Part shown: piece after piece, positions 145 through 17,348 of the stretch | How positions within the stretch are numbered: position 1 is the first letter of the stretch | Layout of the letters: the number at the start of each line of letters is the position of its first letter | Sequence record: MT446396.1 | Origin: Escherichia virus TH22 | Reading direction: 5' to 3' (one strand) | DNA: 64,000 nucleotides | Made by a program: the position numbers and the translations under genes | The notes under the pieces: model-generated | What the model was told of the DNA's origin: nothing | What the model saw: only the letters and a program-made list of their open reading frames with translations | Database searches by the model: none

Positions 145-498
145 ATGGAACGGCCTAGTCTTGCATCACATGTTTATCAATTGGCTGAATATGATATTGG
201 TGCCAATTTATTATTAGGAATTGTCACCGCTATGCTCGGGGGGCTGGTTGGCCTGGTAATGACCACAGTTATGGCTGCAATCGAGGGAGTCATGCCTATT
301 GAGATGGGCTTCTTTATGATAATTGCTCCGGCTGTTGTGGCTTATTTTATCCCGGTTGTGTATGATATCTGTCACACAAATGCCTTGAATGCTCCTAGCC
401 GCAAGAGATACGCTTCGGCAATGGCTGAGTATAATAAGTTCCTAGACAAAACAAAACGCAATGACCTTGAAACCTTTATTAAGGAATGTAAATCATGA
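145..498 (+). CDS. hypothetical membrane protein
   Basis: ATG at 145 preceded by AAGGAGG; hydrophobic segments (LLLGIVTAMLGGLVGLVMTTVMAAI, FFMIIAPAVVAYFIPVV); track ORF 52..498 starts at GTG. Confidence 0.5.
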   Translation: MERPSLASHVYQLAEYDIGANLLLGIVTAMLGGLVGLVMTTVMAAIEGVMPIEMGFFMIIAPAVVAYFIPVVYDICHTNALNAPSRKRYASAMAEYNKFLDKTKRNDLETFIKECKS

Positions 499-785
499 AT
501 AAAATTGAAATTGCTATCCCCAAGTATTATGATGAGAAATCTGCAGAAAAAGCTATCTATTCTCTTCTAAATAAGACCTCTGAAATTGAAAAACACTGTG
601 AAGAAATCGCAGATGAATATGGTATCGAATTCAGCACTGGTGATTACGGCACCGGCCGTACATATCACCCAGTCGGTTATGGATGCTCTGAATGGTTCGC
701 TCACCATATTGAAAACAACGGCGGGCAAGTTGAAAACGGCATTGTTACTGTTGGTGCCTGGGTTTCCTCTTCTGAGGTGTGCTAA
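495..785 (+). CDS. small protein, WVSSS-x-EC C-terminal family, member 1
   Basis: ATGA overlap with upstream gene; C-terminus GAWVSSSEVC shared with next three genes. Confidence 0.55.
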   Translation: MNKIEIAIPKYYDEKSAEKAIYSLLNKTSEIEKHCEEIADEYGIEFSTGDYGTGRTYHPVGYGCSEWFAHHIENNGGQVENGIVTVGAWVSSSEVC

Positions 786-786
786 T

Positions 787-1068
787 ATGATGAATGATTA
801 CCGTAAAAATAAAGAACTGGCTAACGCAGTAAATGACATCCATAAAGCTATTCGTCGTGCCGAGGAAATTGCAAACAAATATGAGACTCATTTTAATATA
901 TACCCTGCTCGCGGTATGGGCGGTGACTATTATTCTCCTGGCGCCTTGAAAACTGACCTTGCTCATTGGGAAGAACATGGTGAAGCTCAATACGCTATTG
1001 TTAACCAACACGACTACACAACAAGCCTAGAGCATGGTGGTTGGGTGTCCTCTTCTTCTGAATGTTAA
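787..1068 (+). CDS. small protein, WVSSS-x-EC C-terminal family, member 2
   Basis: In-frame ATG at 787 directly after stop of member 1; ends GGWVSSSSEC; N-terminal region resembles member 1. Confidence 0.55.
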   Translation: MMNDYRKNKELANAVNDIHKAIRRAEEIANKYETHFNIYPARGMGGDYYSPGALKTDLAHWEEHGEAQYAIVNQHDYTTSLEHGGWVSSSSEC

Positions 1069-1076
1069 GGAATTAT

Positions 1077-1274
1077 ATGTCTCGTGAATTAGATTGTGCA
1101 ATCCGTACTGCTGCGGCAGCTATTGAAAACGTTATCCAGATTTGCAAAGAAGAACGCGAAGAAGCTGATATCTACATTGATGGTGTTCGTGACTTAGAAC
1201 GACATATCACGCTTTATAACGGTTGTATTACTATTAGTGGTACCTCTTGGGTATCATCCTCTTACGAATGCTAA
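1077..1274 (+). CDS. small protein, WVSSS-x-EC C-terminal family, member 3
   Basis: ATG 1077 with AAGGA upstream; ends TSWVSSSYEC. Confidence 0.55.
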   Translation: MSRELDCAIRTAAAAIENVIQICKEEREEADIYIDGVRDLERHITLYNGCITISGTSWVSSSYEC

Positions 1275-1284
1275 GGAAATAAAA

Positions 1285-1509
1285 ATGTCTGATATTAATG
1301 AATTAGAAAAAGCAGCACTTGAACTGGCTGCATTGTATAAGAAAGTAAAAGATATGGCTTCTGCTCAAGATTTTGGTGTCGAGCTCGATGATTATGACGG
1401 CGAAGTCCGACTTGAAGACTGGTTGAACAGCTCTTGTTATGGTGAAGAAGCTGGCCGTACCTTCGTTGCTCGTGCCGATGGTAAAATCTGGTACCCGAGC
1501 AGCTGCTAA
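1285..1509 (+). CDS. small protein, divergent member 4 of C-terminal Cys family
   Basis: ATG 1285 with AAGGAA SD; ends KIWYPSSC (W-x-x-SS-C, terminal Cys). Confidence 0.5.
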   Translation: MSDINELEKAALELAALYKKVKDMASAQDFGVELDDYDGEVRLEDWLNSSCYGEEAGRTFVARADGKIWYPSSC

Positions 1510-1539
1510 AATTATCACAAGGATGTGATAGGAGGACTT

Positions 1540-1869
1540 ATGCACAGAGATTCAGTATTTAAATATCTTTTAAAAACAGATAAAGAATTTTATATGGATG
1601 GACAAGCATTCTTGTTCGTTCGCGGTAAGCGTGAAATGTTTTATAAATGCGACCTCTCCATGCATCATCACATGTACCATACCCATGGCGAGTCCATACT
1701 AGGGTTCTCTGGTGATGAGACTAAACATATAGCTATGTATTATGACCATTTCAAGCTTAATGATTGTGGTGATAATGCTTTGGTCTGGAATCCATCTTGG
1801 TGTCGGTGGGATACAATAGACAACAATAAATTATTTTTAGAATATTGCAGAAGTAGTATACAACTCTAG
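1540..1869 (+). CDS. hypothetical His/Cys-rich protein
   Basis: ATG 1540 after SD ATAGGAGGA; His-rich stretch MHHHMYHTHGE. Confidence 0.45.
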   Translation: MHRDSVFKYLLKTDKEFYMDGQAFLFVRGKREMFYKCDLSMHHHMYHTHGESILGFSGDETKHIAMYYDHFKLNDCGDNALVWNPSWCRWDTIDNNKLFLEYCRSSIQL

Positions 1870-1933: not shown

Positions 1934-2134
1934 ATGTCTATCGCAAACGAATTAATCAAAGTTCTGAACGAAGCCAAAGCCAACCAACTGGAGGTTAATC
2001 TCCAGGAAGTTTCAGATGGCATTAAAGTAACCATCAGCGGCGATGGCGTTCCAGGCACTACAGAGGTTTACGATTCTTTGGAAGAAGTGGTTTCTTGCAT
2101 TAAAAGAGCCGTTTACTTATATGGTATAATTTGA
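1934..2134 (+). CDS. hypothetical protein
   Basis: ORF with SD AGGAGAATAAAA upstream. Confidence 0.45.
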   Translation: MSIANELIKVLNEAKANQLEVNLQEVSDGIKVTISGDGVPGTTEVYDSLEEVVSCIKRAVYLYGII

Positions 2135-2325
2135 GGAAAATATTATGTATAATGTTCTTATTGTTTTTGTCACTCATCCGCAAGGTGGAGTAAGACAGAA
2201 TACTTCTCAAGTGGTTCAATTTTCTTCACTAGAGGCCGCCAATCTTGCTGCCTCACGAATTGAAGCGAAAAAATCGGCACTTGGAAAATATGAAGTAACT
2301 CGTCTTTACTAATGAGGAAAATATT

Positions 2326-3285
2326 ATGATGTTAGTTATTGGCTCTCGCGCATTGCATAACGCCGGTCTGATTGAAAGTAAGAAAATTGAAAACTCTGAT
2401 TGGGACTTTATAGCAGACCAAGGTTCCTGGAACAACTTTAAAACCCAGATGATGGGGCAGCATGTTCCTGTGGATAACCCAGATGTGCAAGCTTTTAAGT
2501 GTATGCACAACGGTAAAGAAACCTATTTTGAAGCATACATCGTCCGAGCCCTGACAAGTGTTCGTGAGCTGACTGATGAGCTACAAGAGGAAGATTTTAC
2601 TTCCAGTTATCGTCTGCTCAAATATGCGAAGGCGAATATTCAGAAAGACCGTCTATCTGGTTTTTACTGGGCGACTCCTGATATTTGTCTGGCAATTAAA
2701 CTGTCTCATCGTTACCTGAAGAACAATCCATTCTTCCTGAAGACCATGAGTCATATTAATTACCTTCGTAATAAGGGTGTTGTTCTTAATGATGAACTGC
2801 AGAAAATCATGCTGCAACGCCAGGCAGAAACATTGTCATATAGCCACCCTAAACTAGACGTGGGCAAGAAAACTTTCTTTAATGATACAATCTATACCCT
2901 TGACCATGACTCCATCCACGAGGCCGTGGCACTTGCTGATAAGCCTGCATATAAGTTCTATATGAAGGATGATTCAGAAGTCATGACCTCACGTGAAAAA
3001 TTTGAAGCACTCCCTGATGTTATTAAACTGGCAGGGGTTTATGAAGAAGCATGTGTGCTTGCTCTGGAACGTTCACAGGTTCCTAATGAGTTCAATATCT
3101 CTCCATCCGTGAGCTTCCATATTGCTCTGGAAAAAGTCTGTACCTCCATTACTTCTGGATGGTTCCGTGAGTATGCCTGGGAACATTACCAGGATGTGGT
3201 TAATATGTACAACACCCTGGGACACGAAGACTATGTTAAACGTTTCAAAGCTAACCAACATTTAATTCGTCCTTTCGAAAAATAA
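2326..3285 (+). CDS. hypothetical protein, possible nucleotidyltransferase fold
   Basis: N-terminal GS-x16-SDWDF pattern reminiscent of Pol-beta NTase motif; SD GAGGAAAAT. Confidence 0.5.
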   Translation: MMLVIGSRALHNAGLIESKKIENSDWDFIADQGSWNNFKTQMMGQHVPVDNPDVQAFKCMHNGKETYFEAYIVRALTSVRELTDELQEEDFTSSYRLLKYAKANIQKDRLSGFYWATPDICLAIKLSHRYLKNNPFFLKTMSHINYLRNKGVVLNDELQKIMLQRQAETLSYSHPKLDVGKKTFFNDTIYTLDHDSIHEAVALADKPAYKFYMKDDSEVMTSREKFEALPDVIKLAGVYEEACVLALERSQVPNEFNISPSVSFHIALEKVCTSITSGWFREYAWEHYQDVVNMYNTLGHEDYVKRFKANQHLIRPFEK

Positions 3286-3286
3286 G

Positions 3287-3344
3287 TGTGTACAACCAAA
3301 TGGGGCTATGACATAATGGTCCCACAATCAATGAGGAAAATATT
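3287..3344 (+). promoter_or_regulatory. early (sigma70-like) promoter plus leader
   Basis: GTGTACAA -35, 17-nt spacer, CATAAT -10, leader CAATGAGGAAAAT. Confidence 0.5.
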
Positions 3345-4031
3345 ATGAACGGTCCTAAAACTTTTAATAGTCAAGCTCGTGCAGTAGGTGGTTTTGCCGG
3401 CGGTATTTCTAATGATAAAATCAAGAACGAGCCTATGTTCTTCAACTGTAGTTTAGAATTTGCTTATAATAACGGCGGTCCTATTACTCGCAGCTTCATC
3501 ATGAACTTGCCAGATGATTGGAACACCGACCAGGTTGTATTTGATTCTCGGGTTCATATGCTGATGCCTGGTTGGTATCCTGCTATCCCAGGTTATCACC
3601 ATGACGATGTACCACGCCCGGATATTCCGGTTGGTCAACACTTTATTACTGCAGGGCAACCTGATTATGATAATCCTCGTTACCATTCTGAACATATTCT
3701 TGGTCTTGTTAACGCTGATGTGTGTCCTACTTATTTTGCAACCGGAACTGCACAATTTAGTCAGATTCCTGAAGGCGAACTTATCTATCGCCAGTGGCAT
3801 AAAGAAGTTCTGGAAAAAATTGAGTCCAATGAATTAACCAAGTGGGATGCTCCTGACCGCACGTTGCTCCAGTTTGATTGGCAGACATGGCATACAGGTT
3901 CTCGCGCAGTAAGTAACGGTTGGCGCTGGTTTGGTCGCGTGTCTCGTAATACCGACCGTGTTAAAAAGATTACAAATGAAATCCGCGTTAATGCTCAAGT
4001 ATATCTGGAATTCCCTATGGAGGGATGGTAA
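3345..4031 (+). CDS. hypothetical protein
   Basis: Early promoter (GTGTACAA -35, CATAAT -10) and SD upstream; 228 aa. Confidence 0.5.
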   Translation: MNGPKTFNSQARAVGGFAGGISNDKIKNEPMFFNCSLEFAYNNGGPITRSFIMNLPDDWNTDQVVFDSRVHMLMPGWYPAIPGYHHDDVPRPDIPVGQHFITAGQPDYDNPRYHSEHILGLVNADVCPTYFATGTAQFSQIPEGELIYRQWHKEVLEKIESNELTKWDAPDRTLLQFDWQTWHTGSRAVSNGWRWFGRVSRNTDRVKKITNEIRVNAQVYLEFPMEGW

Positions 4032-4839: not shown

Positions 4840-5290
4840 GAAAAACGTGGTGAAAGAATTATCTGCTGGCATTATTTTCATGACTGAAGATAAAGAGTTA
4901 TTCATGGGGCGCGTGACTGGTTCTCGCAAACCGGGTATGCCTGCGCATAAATGGGATATCCCTAAGGGTCATGTTGAAGCCGGTGAATCCCCGATTGAAG
5001 CAGCTATGCGTGAATGTGAAGAAGAAACAGGCTTTACCCAGTATGACCCGGCATTCTTAAAAGACCTAGGCGAGTTCCGTTATTCAGATAACAAAAACCT
5101 TCACCTGTTTTTGTACACGGCCCCGGTCGAGCATGAGCAGTTCAGACATAGTAAATGCTCTGCCTATCATACCTTCCCGGATGGTAGTTCGGCCCCCGAG
5201 TTTGATGCATTTGCTCTGATTAAACCGAGCCAATGGCAATACGTAATGGGTAAATCGATGTACAAGGTTTTGACTCAAATTTTCGGATAA
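4829..5290 (+). CDS. nudE: Nudix hydrolase NudE-like
   Basis: Nudix box GHVEAGESPIEAAMRECEEETG; sits directly upstream of lysozyme e as in T4. Confidence 0.8.
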   Translation: MMSKKNVVKELSAGIIFMTEDKELFMGRVTGSRKPGMPAHKWDIPKGHVEAGESPIEAAMRECEEETGFTQYDPAFLKDLGEFRYSDNKNLHLFLYTAPVEHEQFRHSKCSAYHTFPDGSSAPEFDAFALIKPSQWQYVMGKSMYKVLTQIFG

Positions 5291-5316
5291 TAAATACCCC
5301 TATATAAGGGGGTATT

Positions 5317-5808
5317 ATGAATATATTCGAAATGTTACGCATAGATGAAGGTTGTAAGTTGGATTTGTACCGTGACACCGAAGGCTTTTGGACCATCGGC
5401 ATCGGTCAATTGATAACTAAGAACCCATCGAAAGACGTTGCTCGCGCTGAGCTGGACAAATTAATGGGTCGTGTTTGCAACGGTAGGATTACCCAGATTG
5501 AAGCTGAAACCTTGTTTAACCGTTCAGTGGAAAAAGCTAAAGCCGGAATCTTGAAACATCCTGTCTTAAAACCTGTTTATGATGTACTGGATGAAGTTCG
5601 TCGTTGCGCACTCATTAATATGGTATTCCAAATGGGTGTAGCTGGTGTAGCTGGTTTTCCTAAGGGGCTGCGATTGCTCAAGGCTAAATCATGGGAAGCT
5701 GCTGCTAAGGAACTGGCTGACTCAAGATGGTATAAAGTCCAGACTCCGAACCGGGCCAAACGAGTTATTGAAACTTTCCGTACTGGAACTTTTGACGCAT
5801 ACAAATGA
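5317..5808 (+). CDS. e: lysozyme (endolysin) e
   Basis: 163 aa; [12 protein letters not shown]...GFWTIGIG matches T4 lysozyme nearly residue for residue over the N-terminus. Confidence 0.95.
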
Positions 5809-5864
5809 GTTTACATCTCCAAACGATAGGGTTATAATGACCCTATCAACTACGGAGAACAAAC
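5809..5864 (+). promoter_or_regulatory. early promoter with -10 inside inverted repeat, upstream of denV
   Basis: GTTTACA -35, TATAAT -10 within GATAGGG..CCCTATC, leader ATCAACTACGGAG. Confidence 0.55.
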
Positions 5865-14415: not shown

Positions 14416-14868
14416 ATGATTATTAATGAAAACGCCTGGCACGTTAAATTACACGACCGTTTTTATGGCCATTATTCTCGCCCACACTCTTTGTGTGCTT
14501 ACTTCTGGAAAATTGTATGGGTCTGCTTTATTTGTTCTGTGCTTGCAGGTAGTACAATCTTCGCCTTAACTGTTGCAGGTGCTGGTGTATTGGAGCAGTT
14601 CTTTGTATTAAGTACTCCTGTTGGTTTAGGGTTAGGGTTTATTTTAGGACTAGCTACAATGGCTCTTATTTTGGCGGTAGCATTTGGTTTAATATATGGT
14701 CTAATGAATTTATGGGCCTGGTATGATTTACGTAAAGAAGAAAAAGAATGGGAACGAATTAAAGCCAAACGCGAAGGAAAGGAAATTAAAGAAAACGTTT
14801 TCATTCAATATATCAAAGCTCGTAAATCTAAGATGTGTCCGGTAATCCATTTTGAGGCGAAGAAATGA
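14416..14868 (+). CDS. hypothetical membrane protein
   Basis: Several hydrophobic helices (VWVCFICSVLAGSTIFALTVAG; GLGLGFILGLATMALILAVAFGLIYGL). Confidence 0.45.
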   Translation: MIINENAWHVKLHDRFYGHYSRPHSLCAYFWKIVWVCFICSVLAGSTIFALTVAGAGVLEQFFVLSTPVGLGLGFILGLATMALILAVAFGLIYGLMNLWAWYDLRKEEKEWERIKAKREGKEIKENVFIQYIKARKSKMCPVIHFEAKK

Positions 14869-15875
14869 GAACAGTTATGAAGGGATATTTTGGGTCCCAT
14901 CTTTATGGAACAAGTACTCCGGAATCTGATGTCGATTTTAAGGAAATCTTTGTTCCACATCCACGTGATATTCTGTTAGGTACGGCAATGAATCATACAA
15001 ACTTGAACACGAATAACACGGCATCCAAAAACACTAAAGACGATGTTGACCACGAGCTTTATAGCCTGAAATATTTCTTTAAACTGGCGGCTGAAGGTGA
15101 AACTGTTGCTCTGGACATGATTCACACTCCGGCTAACCTGGTAGTCAAATCCGATTTACCAGATGTATGGAAGTTTATCCAAGACAACCGTTCACGGTTC
15201 TATACGACCAACATGAAAGCATATTTGGGGTACGTCCGTAAGCAAGCTTCAAAATATGGTGTTAAAGGTTCTAGACTGGCTGCTTTACGTGGTGTACTGG
15301 CAATTGTTAACCAGATTCCTGAACAGTGGGTTGACTACCAAGAAGATGGTTCGACTAAACAACGTCGCACTAAAGTTGAAGATATTAAGCATCGTCTCCC
15401 AGAGAATGAATTCTGTGAATGGGTATTCCATAACCATGAGAAAACCGGTCCTCAAACGTTTTATACTGTTCTCGGTCGCAAATACCAAACTACTTTGTCA
15501 TTAATCGAGCTTAAGCAATCTCTGAATAAACTTGATGCCGAATATGGTGAACGCGCTCGTAAGGCCGAAGCTAACGAAGGTATTGACTGGAAAGCTCTGA
15601 GCCACGCTTATCGTGCTGGATATCAGTTGAAGGAAATTTATATGACCGGTGACCTTCAATATCCTTTACGAACAGCCCCATTTATCCTTGAAATCAAACA
15701 AGGGCTACATGCTTTTAAAGATGTACAAGCTGAACTTGAAGCAATCGTCGATGAAGTCGAAACCAATGCCATCTGGGCGGCCAAGAACGGCATGCCCGAT
15801 AAGGTAGACATGAAGTTCTGGGACAAGTTTGTTGAAGAGGTATATCTTGACAACCACAATTCCTATTATCGTTAA
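14865..15875 (+). CDS. nucleotidyltransferase-fold protein (Pol-beta superfamily-like)
   Basis: N-terminal GSHLYGTSTPESDVDF fits the GS-x(9-13)-DhDh NTase motif; ATGA overlap with upstream gene. Confidence 0.55.
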   Translation: MRTVMKGYFGSHLYGTSTPESDVDFKEIFVPHPRDILLGTAMNHTNLNTNNTASKNTKDDVDHELYSLKYFFKLAAEGETVALDMIHTPANLVVKSDLPDVWKFIQDNRSRFYTTNMKAYLGYVRKQASKYGVKGSRLAALRGVLAIVNQIPEQWVDYQEDGSTKQRRTKVEDIKHRLPENEFCEWVFHNHEKTGPQTFYTVLGRKYQTTLSLIELKQSLNKLDAEYGERARKAEANEGIDWKALSHAYRAGYQLKEIYMTGDLQYPLRTAPFILEIKQGLHAFKDVQAELEAIVDEVETNAIWAAKNGMPDKVDMKFWDKFVEEVYLDNHNSYYR

Positions 15876-17285: not shown

Positions 17286-17348
17286 ACGCTTTATACCAAG
17301 GATGGTATAATGGTTCTGACCTTTGATTAATCTATTGAGGAAATTATT

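Follow-up and report, generated by a model that had tools for sequence, protein, structure and literature searches.

MntA of the MntA–HepT type VII toxin–antitoxin system is a minimal nucleotidyltransferase (NTase) that AMPylates its protein partner. PsmN, a nucleotidyltransferase homologue, is involved in modifying the C-terminal Ser of the lasso peptide pseudomycoidin, and AviCys-forming lanthipeptides carry S-x-x-C C-termini. RNA repair in phages is known to involve Pol-beta NTases of the RlaP and CCA classes (PMC7824862). In the toxin MenT1, the motif III Lys (K137) and the motif IV Asp (D152) are located in the helical lobe, and the active site is blocked by MenA1, the 68-aa antitoxin (PMC10435456).

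Here we analyse a 64-kb stretch of DNA from a T4-like coliphage (64,000 nucleotides, hereafter the window), in which a 319-aa protein is encoded downstream of a tandem array of small proteins that share a conserved C-terminal tail. A preliminary description of the window had proposed that the larger protein carries a Pol-beta-type NTase N-terminus. Our results support this interpretation and place the protein in a family, defined by the domains DUF7277 and DUF7275, whose combination with small-protein arrays in virulent phages appears to be an undescribed module. Literature searches on the DUF7277/DUF7275 family, the Cys-tailed proteins, their linkage and phage RiPP-like systems returned nothing relevant.

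Results

The 319-aa protein belongs to a phage family with a predicted nucleotidyltransferase fold

The gene (2326..3285, plus strand, stop codon included) begins with MMLVIGSRALHNAGLIESKKIENSDWDF and lies within a tightly packed, co-directional gene block, upstream of e.2, nudE, the e lysozyme gene and denV. The nearest relatives are Gaprivervirus-type phages, e.g., SP18, VR7, TH57 and EAWsc9, and the identity of the enzyme to proteins from related coliphages is ~73-74%. Its 16-nt translation-initiation cassette, TGAGGAAAATATTATG (2313..2328, plus strand), comprises the Shine-Dalgarno sequence and the ATG and occurs in three exact copies in the 64 kb, versus zero expected by chance; the further identical copies stand ahead of the flanking genes starting at 2145 and 3345. 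The adjoining ORFs in the window have no Pfam match, and a promoter and terminator scan gave counts at chance level and nothing on timing. The downstream 228-aa gene (3345..4031) was considered as a general third component and rejected, being adjacent in one lineage group only and unlinked in Aeromonas phage 31 and the Gordonia phages. In one record its product is called ‘phytanoyl-CoA dioxygenase’; automated names there are unreliable.

In Pfam, residues 2-101 of the protein match DUF7277 (E = 5.9e-27; 94.6 bits against a cut-off of 27) and residues 120-305 match DUF7275 (E = 1.6e-75; 253.6 bits, cut-off 27), while PHROGs assigns the protein to phrog_2141, of unknown function. The family comprises 2,061 clusters at 90% identity in a metagenome-scale protein set, and tblastn with the enzyme yields matches in 731 phage records, with hosts including Escherichia, Klebsiella, Acinetobacter, Aeromonas, Pseudomonas, Vibrio, Streptomyces, Gordonia and others. 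Complete E. coli genomes contain no homolog at the DNA level, and only five matches were found in 185,579 cellular species genomes, all of them on MAG contigs resembling phage DNA. Once, on a 3-kb contig, we observed a lipoprotein-like N-terminus fused to DUF7275 (P0058), possibly a chimera.

Two alignments were used for the analysis of conservation: one of 43 diverse homologs, down to 45% identity, and one of 89 sequences that includes the most distant subfamily. All 43 members of the first match both Pfam domains. The N-terminus of the protein, MMLVIGSRALHNAGLIESKKIENSDWDFIADQ, contains G6-S7 (codons 2341..2346), corresponding to the hG[GS] motif of NTases, and, after 17 intervening residues, D25-W-D27 (2398..2406), a putative metal-binding D-x-D; the peptide and the spacing quoted in the preliminary description are correct. 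As for a third acidic residue, proposed there as a check, E69 (2530..2532) is the candidate third catalytic carboxylate (all three sites on the plus strand). The motif exceeds a chance resemblance: G6, S7, D25, D27 and E69 are invariant in 43/43 homologs. In the larger set, wherever the N-terminus is present, G-S is retained in 87/87 and D-x-D in 88/88 sequences, and position 69 is acidic in 82 of the 89 (Glu in 78, Asp in 4). BLAST aligns the versions from Acinetobacter and Gordonia phages over the C-terminal half only, yet these too start with IGS...DxD.

An AlphaFold2 model predicted from the alignment (pLDDT 91.4, pTM 0.84) puts these motifs in their canonical places: G6-S7 at the junction of strand 2-5 and helix 6-12, D25-W-D27 where strand 26-31 begins, and E69 midway along the predicted strand 64-73. 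The preliminary description had staked its proposal on the presence of an NTase fold in a predicted structure, and Foldseek indeed returned NTase-fold matches, topped by 5uvd (E = 8e-4) and MenT1 (E = 1.7e-3; 187 aligned columns, target of 195 residues). Over the fold searches as a whole, MenT1, MenT3 and MenT4 are the best structural matches. The sequence and fold features of the Pol-beta-like superfamily are found together in the protein, i.e., hG[GS], a [DE]h[DE]h pair on strand 2, a candidate third carboxylate on a neighbouring strand and the alpha/beta NTase fold. Since motif invariance, model and fold searches agree, the NTase interpretation is supported, and the 319-aa protein has, as predicted, a nucleotidyltransferase fold. 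Invariance of the catalytic motif further suggests that the NTase is active.

Sequence-only searches (Pfam, NCBIfam, PADLOC, PDB) gave no link to NTases beyond DUF7277 and DUF7275: NCBIfam, PADLOC and PDB returned nothing significant, PDB sequence and profile searches did not match the MenT chains, and the single exception is one family member that matches DUF6036 (E = 0.045). A profile match to RNase L KEN/HEPN in the PDB (E = 0.51) was not significant and was discarded. The NTase fold of the family is absent from its Pfam record, which lists two DUFs, and sporadic in GenBank, where members are mostly annotated as ‘hypothetical’ and as ‘nucleotidyltransferase’ in two records. The published ‘nucleotidyltransferase’ gp52:53 of RB69 is an unrelated sugar-nucleotide enzyme. 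The enzyme described here represents a new branch, with structural elaborations, within a known superfamily.

In agreement with the preliminary description, T4 has no counterpart: searched by tblastn against the whole T4 genome, the enzyme gave a best E of 3.3 and the four small proteins described below gave no match, and none of the 1,422 T4 ORF segments scanned carries their tail motif. T4 does encode NrdC.11, annotated as ‘nucleotidyltransferase’ in its RefSeq record, which we take to be an RlaP-type, RNA-ligase-associated Pol-beta NTase. The 319-aa protein has no significant blastp match to NrdC.11 or to its ortholog in the window (14865..15875, 82% identical to NrdC.11), and hhalign gives a probability of 0.1%. 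With an NrdC.11 ortholog of its own in the window, the phage therefore carries two distinct NTase-fold accessory proteins.

The C-terminal domain is the more conserved part of the enzyme

Conservation is higher in DUF7275 than in the NTase lobe. Residues K125, H128, K139, E240, E241, E248 and R249 are invariant in 89/89 sequences, and H194, D195, H198 and P207 are conserved in 88/88. On the plus strand, the codons of K125-L-S-H128 lie at 2698..2709, those of H194-D195-S-I-H198, the conserved ‘HDxxH’ that opens a helix, at 2905..2919, and those from E240-E241 through E248-R249 (GVYEE.CVLALER, in the long helix 231-251) at 3043..3072. An HD-type or zincin-type metal site in DUF7275 was considered and found no support in the fold. 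The codon of C272, within KVCTSITSGWFRE, lies at 3139..3141 (plus strand); this residue is Cys in 86/86 long-type enzymes and Ile in 3/3 of the short type described below.

Judged by spacing, K125 is a candidate equivalent of the MenT motif III lysine: 98 residues separate D27 from K125, versus 96 between D41 and K137 of MenT1. By the same measure, the motif IV Asp would fall 15 residues after K125, at T140, beside the invariant K139, and no equivalent of it is obvious. In MenT-type enzymes, the counterpart of the start of DUF7275 is the helical lobe, and the remainder of the domain is a new elaboration, with ~150 extra and very highly conserved C-terminal residues that have no match in the PDB.

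Arrays of Cys-tailed small proteins accompany long-type enzymes

The WVSSS peptide array noted next to the enzyme in the preliminary description consists of four genes, all on the plus strand. Partner 1 (495..785; 96 aa) ends in ...GAWVSSSEVC-stop, matches phrog_899 (E = 1.7e-21) and belongs to the recurrent neighbour family described below. Partner 2 (787..1068; 93 aa from the ATG at 787), also phrog_899, ends in ...GGWVSSSSEC-stop and has tblastn matches in 281 phage records. Partner 3 (1062..1274; 70 aa; phrog_4882, E = 3e-36) ends in ...TSWVSSSYEC-stop; translation may in fact begin at the internal Met 6. Partner 4 (1285..1509; 74 aa from the ATG at 1285; phrog_899, E = 5e-10) ends in ...GKIWYPSSC-stop. 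In the window, the tail motif is found in exactly four ORFs, all within this array (495-1509), and three small, unrelated ORFs lie between the array and the NTase gene. RB69 carries homologs of a Cys-tail small protein (ORF137c) and of the 228-aa gene downstream of the enzyme (ORF132c).

For the analysis of linkage, 80 viral loci with relatives of the enzyme were fetched with 10-kb flanks and their ORFs called, which gave 3,488 neighbour proteins for clustering; the enzymes of these loci form 17 lineages at 60% identity. The sole broadly recurrent neighbour family was that of the WVSSS small proteins, found by BLAST clustering at most three genes away in 8 lineages. Because these proteins are very divergent, we rescanned the loci by tail pattern, W-x(1,2)-[SAN]-x(1,5)-C-stop in stop-to-stop segments. 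The pattern was matched by 260 of 17,340 segments, 248 on the enzyme’s strand versus 11 on the opposite strand. Most of the 248 (215) map to the 2 kb preceding the enzyme gene. In total, 15/17 lineages are positive. Of the two that are negative, the first comes from a locus truncated by the end of its contig (L080), and the second from Gordonia phage Miskis (L005), whose enzyme is of the short type and has a different partner (see below).

Counted by locus, the partner is present in 84/86 long-type loci, in one to six tandem copies on the same strand, nearly always 0-2 kb upstream. One genuine exception, L078, has no partner in the scanned ~3 kb upstream or ~1.5 kb downstream. Five further loci, from MAG contigs, are all partner-positive. 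The linkage also holds in the reverse direction: 4/4 contigs retrieved with independently found small-protein homologs carry a DUF7277+DUF7275 gene, 1.0-1.7 kb downstream, the four apparently representing one lineage.

The Cys-tailed partners are small and acidic (median 81 aa, median pI 4.4). Their N-terminus forms an amphipathic helix ending in A-D-E-x-G-x-x-F; a Y-G-x-G-x-x-Y-x-P motif is often present, and the tail follows the consensus G-G-W-[VI]-S-S-S-x-x-Cys-COOH. Trp occupies position -7 in 143/196 unique tails and Ser positions -4 and -3 in ~77%; Cys is last in all unique tails, as the search pattern demands. Among 34 diverse partners, with a mean identity of 20%, invariance is limited to W, one S and the terminal C. 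The partners match no Pfam family and nothing informative in the PDB, and the source records give them no names. The partner bodies diverge faster than the enzyme: where enzymes are 62-71% identical, partners are 40-60% identical, and where enzymes are ~55% identical, partners are barely detectable by BLAST (32-33%, in one locus), while the tails persist.

Short-type enzymes pair with a different family of small proteins

Streptomyces and Gordonia phages as well as Schizotequatrovirus phages of Vibrio encode short-type enzymes of ~250-263 aa. These keep G-S, D-x-D and most of the DUF7275 invariants, with Ile in place of Cys272. Their N-lobe is reduced, with only ~30 residues matching DUF7277, and an invariant D49 takes the place of E69 at the position of the third carboxylate.

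The short-type loci are without Cys-tail neighbours. Instead, 37/38 carry one to four tandem genes for small acidic proteins (median 124 aa, pI 4.4) with a ‘KTIT’ tail, on the same strand and usually directly downstream; the lone negative locus ends ~350 bp past the enzyme gene. The consensus of these proteins is ...F-R-x-x-G-x-Y-x-S-Y-x-G-x-x-W-D-G-x-x-x-E-V-x-P-x-x-K-T-[VI]-T-V-Y-E. The KTIT family was found in 0/87 long-type loci and not in T4, and a relationship with the Cys-tail family was rejected (hhalign probability 0.2%). We therefore find two independent forms of the same pairing, in which a DUF7275 NTase is accompanied by an array of small acidic proteins that share a conserved C-terminal segment rich in hydroxyl groups, as the short-type enzymes pair with a family unrelated to the Cys-tailed one. 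Cys272 of the enzyme tracks the Cys-tailed form of the partner.

Discussion

The conserved part of the partners is the tail only and the enzyme is highly conserved, which suggests that the tail may be a common handle on many diverged effectors. We tentatively propose, at somewhat less than even confidence, that the NTase is active and nucleotidylylates a Ser in the tail of its partners, or a Thr in the case of the short type. The minimal N-terminal lobe, fused to the larger, more strongly conserved helical DUF7275, would be catalytic (G6-S7, D25-x-D27 and E69) and bind Mg2+ and an NTP. The partner tail would dock where the two lobes form a cleft, and the NMP would be moved from the NTP to a Ser hydroxyl in an AMPylation-type O-nucleotidylylation. 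Several different small effectors, presumably made early in infection, could receive a common modification in this manner. The tail is a plausible acceptor because NTases of this clade transfer to hydroxyls, and because both unrelated partner families show a conserved Ser/Thr near the C-terminus. A role as substrate is also suggested by the gene arrangement, multi-copy substrates beside a single tailoring enzyme being familiar, and by the precedents of NTase folds acting on a partner protein (MntA/HepT) or on a peptide’s C-terminal Ser (PsmN).

Several observations speak against the tail as a substrate. The characterised nearest structural relatives, MenT1, MenT3 and MenT4, modify tRNA 3′ ends and not proteins. 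Moreover, the small protein encoded beside MenT1 is an inhibitor and not a substrate (PMC10435456), and a pseudo-substrate inhibitor would equally show a conserved tail. Further points against the proposal are the three unrelated ORFs between array and enzyme in the window, and the partnerless L078.

The main rival builds on these same relatives. The enzyme could be an NTase of the MenT/AbiEii kind and reprogram or stop host translation by extending or blocking the 3′ ends of RNA (e.g., tRNA CCA), with the small proteins as inhibitors or timers whose conserved tail would plug the active site; we consider this unlikely on balance, but well worth weighing. It would account for the best structural matches of the model, for the resemblance between the D27-K125 spacing and that of motifs I and III in MenT1, and, by analogy with MenA1 at the active site of MenT1 (PMC10435456), for the presence of a small partner. 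The acidity of the partners fits as well. Small acidic proteins are typical nucleic-acid-mimicking inhibitors. However, none of 43 members matches Pfam AbiEii/DUF1814 even at E <= 10, PADLOC is without a match, and the motif IV Asp would by spacing fall at T140, next to the invariant K139. Up to six diverged paralogs per genome that evolve faster than the enzyme would be unusual for antitoxins, and the module is found in virulent phages and is nearly absent from bacterial genomes, unlike toxin–antitoxin systems.

The readings that follow are less likely. In one, which we regard as improbable, the enzyme would be an RNA-repair NTase of the RlaP/CCA-like kind that restores damaged tRNA or RNA ends together with phage RNA ligases and so counters host anticodon or acceptor-end nucleases. 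Phage NTases of these classes are known in that role (PMC7824862), and some neighbourhoods are suggestive: an RNA ligase gene lies immediately downstream of the homolog in Ralstonia phage RSP15 and two genes upstream in Streptomyces phage Limpid, and a tRNA array lies ~1.3 kb downstream in Gordonia phage Miskis. Yet an RNA ligase is adjacent in these two lineages only and is not a recurrent neighbour among the 80 loci, the 64-kb window has no tRNA genes, no Pfam NTase family is matched, and similarity to NrdC.11 or its ortholog is missing in both blastp and hhalign. The near-obligate small-protein partners would also be left unexplained. The same applies to a small-molecule NTase, ANT(2'')/Lnu-like, that would inactivate, for example, a hydroxyl-bearing, aminoglycoside-like anti-phage metabolite or a signalling nucleotide: the co-inherited partner arrays have no place in it, the protein belongs to no such sequence family, and the large conserved C-domain is without counterpart in ANT/Lnu, which makes this reading very unlikely. 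Least credible is a non-catalytic scaffold that keeps the NTase fold solely as a platform for binding small proteins; the much reduced N-lobe of the short type (~30 residues matching DUF7277) would suit it, but G-S and D-x-D are invariant even there, which would be unexpected without catalysis.

Returning to nucleotidylylation of the tail, the invariant terminal Cys and its co-variation with Cys272 find no explanation in the simple reaction. One extension, which we hold to be a long shot, is that the nucleotidylylated Ser serves as a leaving group, so that the tail would pass through dehydroalanine to a lanthionine-like S-x-x-C ring with the C-terminal Cys. H194-D195-x-x-H198, E240/E241 and E248/R249, together with C272, could then promote beta-elimination and addition of the Cys thiol. 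If true, this would be a phage RiPP-like maturation that proceeds via nucleotidylylation rather than phosphorylation or glutamylation, and it would provide stabilised or reactive hypervariable effectors against the host.

Most host-takeover and counter-defence functions that are still unexplained reside in the early accessory genes of large lytic phages. The present family, filed only as two DUFs, is carried by at least 731 sequenced phages, therapeutic-type phages included, and two sets of ‘hypothetical proteins’ now become one testable enzyme–partner system. Nucleotidylylation of the partners, if it occurs, would constitute a new type of protein modification in phages, and possibly also a novel way of activating Ser. 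If the small proteins are inhibitors instead, the module would be a MenT-like toxin that modifies RNA and is carried by phages, with a regulator that is, unusually, present in multiple copies.

Among described systems, the MenT/AbiEii toxins (MenT1, 8an4; MenT3/TglT, 6j7n; MenT4, 6y56) share, according to the model, the bi-lobed architecture of the 319-aa NTase. They differ in that the latter has no PF08843 match (43 members, E <= 10) and no evident motif IV Asp, and carries ~150 extra C-terminal residues. Its partners, unrelated to MenA/AbiEi, form tandem arrays of Cys-tailed acidic proteins without a Pfam match, and the module resides in virulent phages rather than in bacterial toxin–antitoxin loci. 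T4 NrdC.11 is likewise a phage accessory protein with GS...DxD, but is unrelated in sequence and profile, lies in another genomic neighbourhood and is present in T4, from which the DUF7277/DUF7275 protein is absent. The antibiotic nucleotidyltransferases ANT(2'')-Ia (4xje) and LnuA (4wh5) act on small-molecule acceptors and have neither partner proteins nor a DUF7275-like domain. The small genes, tandem paralogs that lie beside one enzyme and whose products end in a conserved Ser/Cys motif, are reminiscent of RiPP clusters, in which several precursor genes accompany one tailoring enzyme. However, the partners are proteins of 60-110 aa rather than short peptides, the context is that of a lytic phage, and no recognisable leader-binding domain, protease or exporter is found nearby, in line with the clustering of the 80 loci, where the small proteins are the only recurrent neighbours. 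For the proposed relation of enzyme and substrate, the closest precedent is MntA–HepT, in which a minimal NTase is likewise encoded beside its own partner. Unlike HepT, the partners described here are not HEPN RNases and lack Rx4-6H, their invariant residues being W, S and the terminal C alone, and, in contrast to MntA–HepT, the phage system combines multiple partner paralogs with a large additional enzyme domain.

Small-protein partners of the nucleotidyltransferase

The window carries four tandem paralogs on the plus strand (495..785, 787..1068, 1062..1274 and 1285..1509) whose small acidic products all end W-x-S-S-...-Cys-stop, and among all ORFs of the 64-kb window this tail is confined to the 495..1509 array. 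These Cys-tail ORFs belong to the phrog_899/phrog_4882 family, for which no Pfam match was found and which accompanies the nucleotidyltransferase (NTase) gene (2326..3285, plus strand) across phage lineages. In this phage the array and the NTase gene are kept apart by three small plus-strand ORFs, 1525..1869 (phrog_9796), 1934..2134 (phrog_14244) and 2145..2312 (phrog_20278); in other lineages the array directly abuts the NTase gene. Within ORF 1525..1869 there is a 'WNPSWC' string with a loose resemblance to the partner tail, although it is internal and not C-terminal.

A second small acidic family, unrelated to the Cys-tail family and likewise without a Pfam match, forms tandem arrays beside the DUF7275 enzymes of the short type found in actinophages and in Vibrio Schizotequatrovirus phages (4890..5815 of locus L005, 4127..4822 of L087, 2806..3102 of L088, and loci L099-L133). 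Its members are about 124 aa long and follow the pattern ...F-R-x-x-G-x-Y-x-S-Y-x-G...E-V-x-P-x-x-K-T-I-T-V-Y-E. A string resembling this K-T-I-T, 'K-K-T-I-T', also occurs within the short-type enzymes themselves, at the place where the long type has 'KVCTSIT'.

A shared initiation cassette and the downstream gene

The 16-nt cassette TGAGGAAAATATTATG, comprising a Shine-Dalgarno sequence and start codon, is present in three exact plus-strand copies (2132..2147, 2313..2328 and 3332..3347), which precede three consecutive genes encoding a 55-aa protein, the NTase and a 228-aa protein. Two further copies with one mismatch lie at 17336 and 57092. None is expected by chance. Selection for identical translation initiation could explain the repetition, or the copies could mark junctions used in modular gene shuffling.

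The 228-aa protein (3345..4031, plus strand; phrog_1843), encoded directly 3' of the NTase gene, is a homolog of RB69ORF132c without a Pfam match, and its family spans 472 phage records, Mycobacterium and Gordonia phages among them. T4-like enterobacterial phages and Serratia phage 4S are the only ones in which its gene adjoins the NTase gene; elsewhere the two are unlinked. The protein carries an HHDD...H...R pattern which, together with an unreliable 'phytanoyl-CoA dioxygenase' label in one record, hints at a 2OG/Fe(II)-oxygenase-like fold.

RNA-related neighbours and atypical homologs

An RNA ligase gene lies immediately downstream of the NTase homolog in Ralstonia phage RSP15 (L089 4269..5291) and two genes upstream of it in Streptomyces phage Limpid (L087 1564..2223), and Gordonia phage Miskis (L005) has a tRNA array that begins about 1.3 kb downstream. 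These cases are too sporadic to count as linkage, but they leave room for an RNA-related role.

One partner-family ORF of RSP15 (L089 2970..3242) ends ...KWNASAGMCGYL, with three extra residues after the Cys; it may therefore represent either decay of a former copy or a variant with a non-terminal Cys. The RSP15 enzyme as annotated starts MYFGRNPQDSDII..., without the IGS motif, and this start may be mis-called. In one database protein (P0058; 308 aa, 3-kb Logan contig) DUF7275 is fused not to an NTase lobe but to a DUF1190-type N-terminus (PF06693) with a lipoprotein-like signal sequence, possibly a chimera from assembly or gene calling.

In the closely related Escherichia phage EAWsc9 (L001; PQ341120), many small early ORFs bear implausible product names in the deposited record ('malate synthase', 'transposase', 'ovule protein', 'type IV secretion protein VirB3'). 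The 'nucleotidyltransferase' label on its homolog is correct, yet cannot count as independent evidence.

A second nucleotidyltransferase-fold protein

The window also encodes an ortholog of T4 NrdC.11 (14865..15875, plus strand; 82% identity). This GS...DxD nucleotidyltransferase differs from the 2326..3285 protein, and the phage thus has two unrelated NTase-fold accessory proteins.
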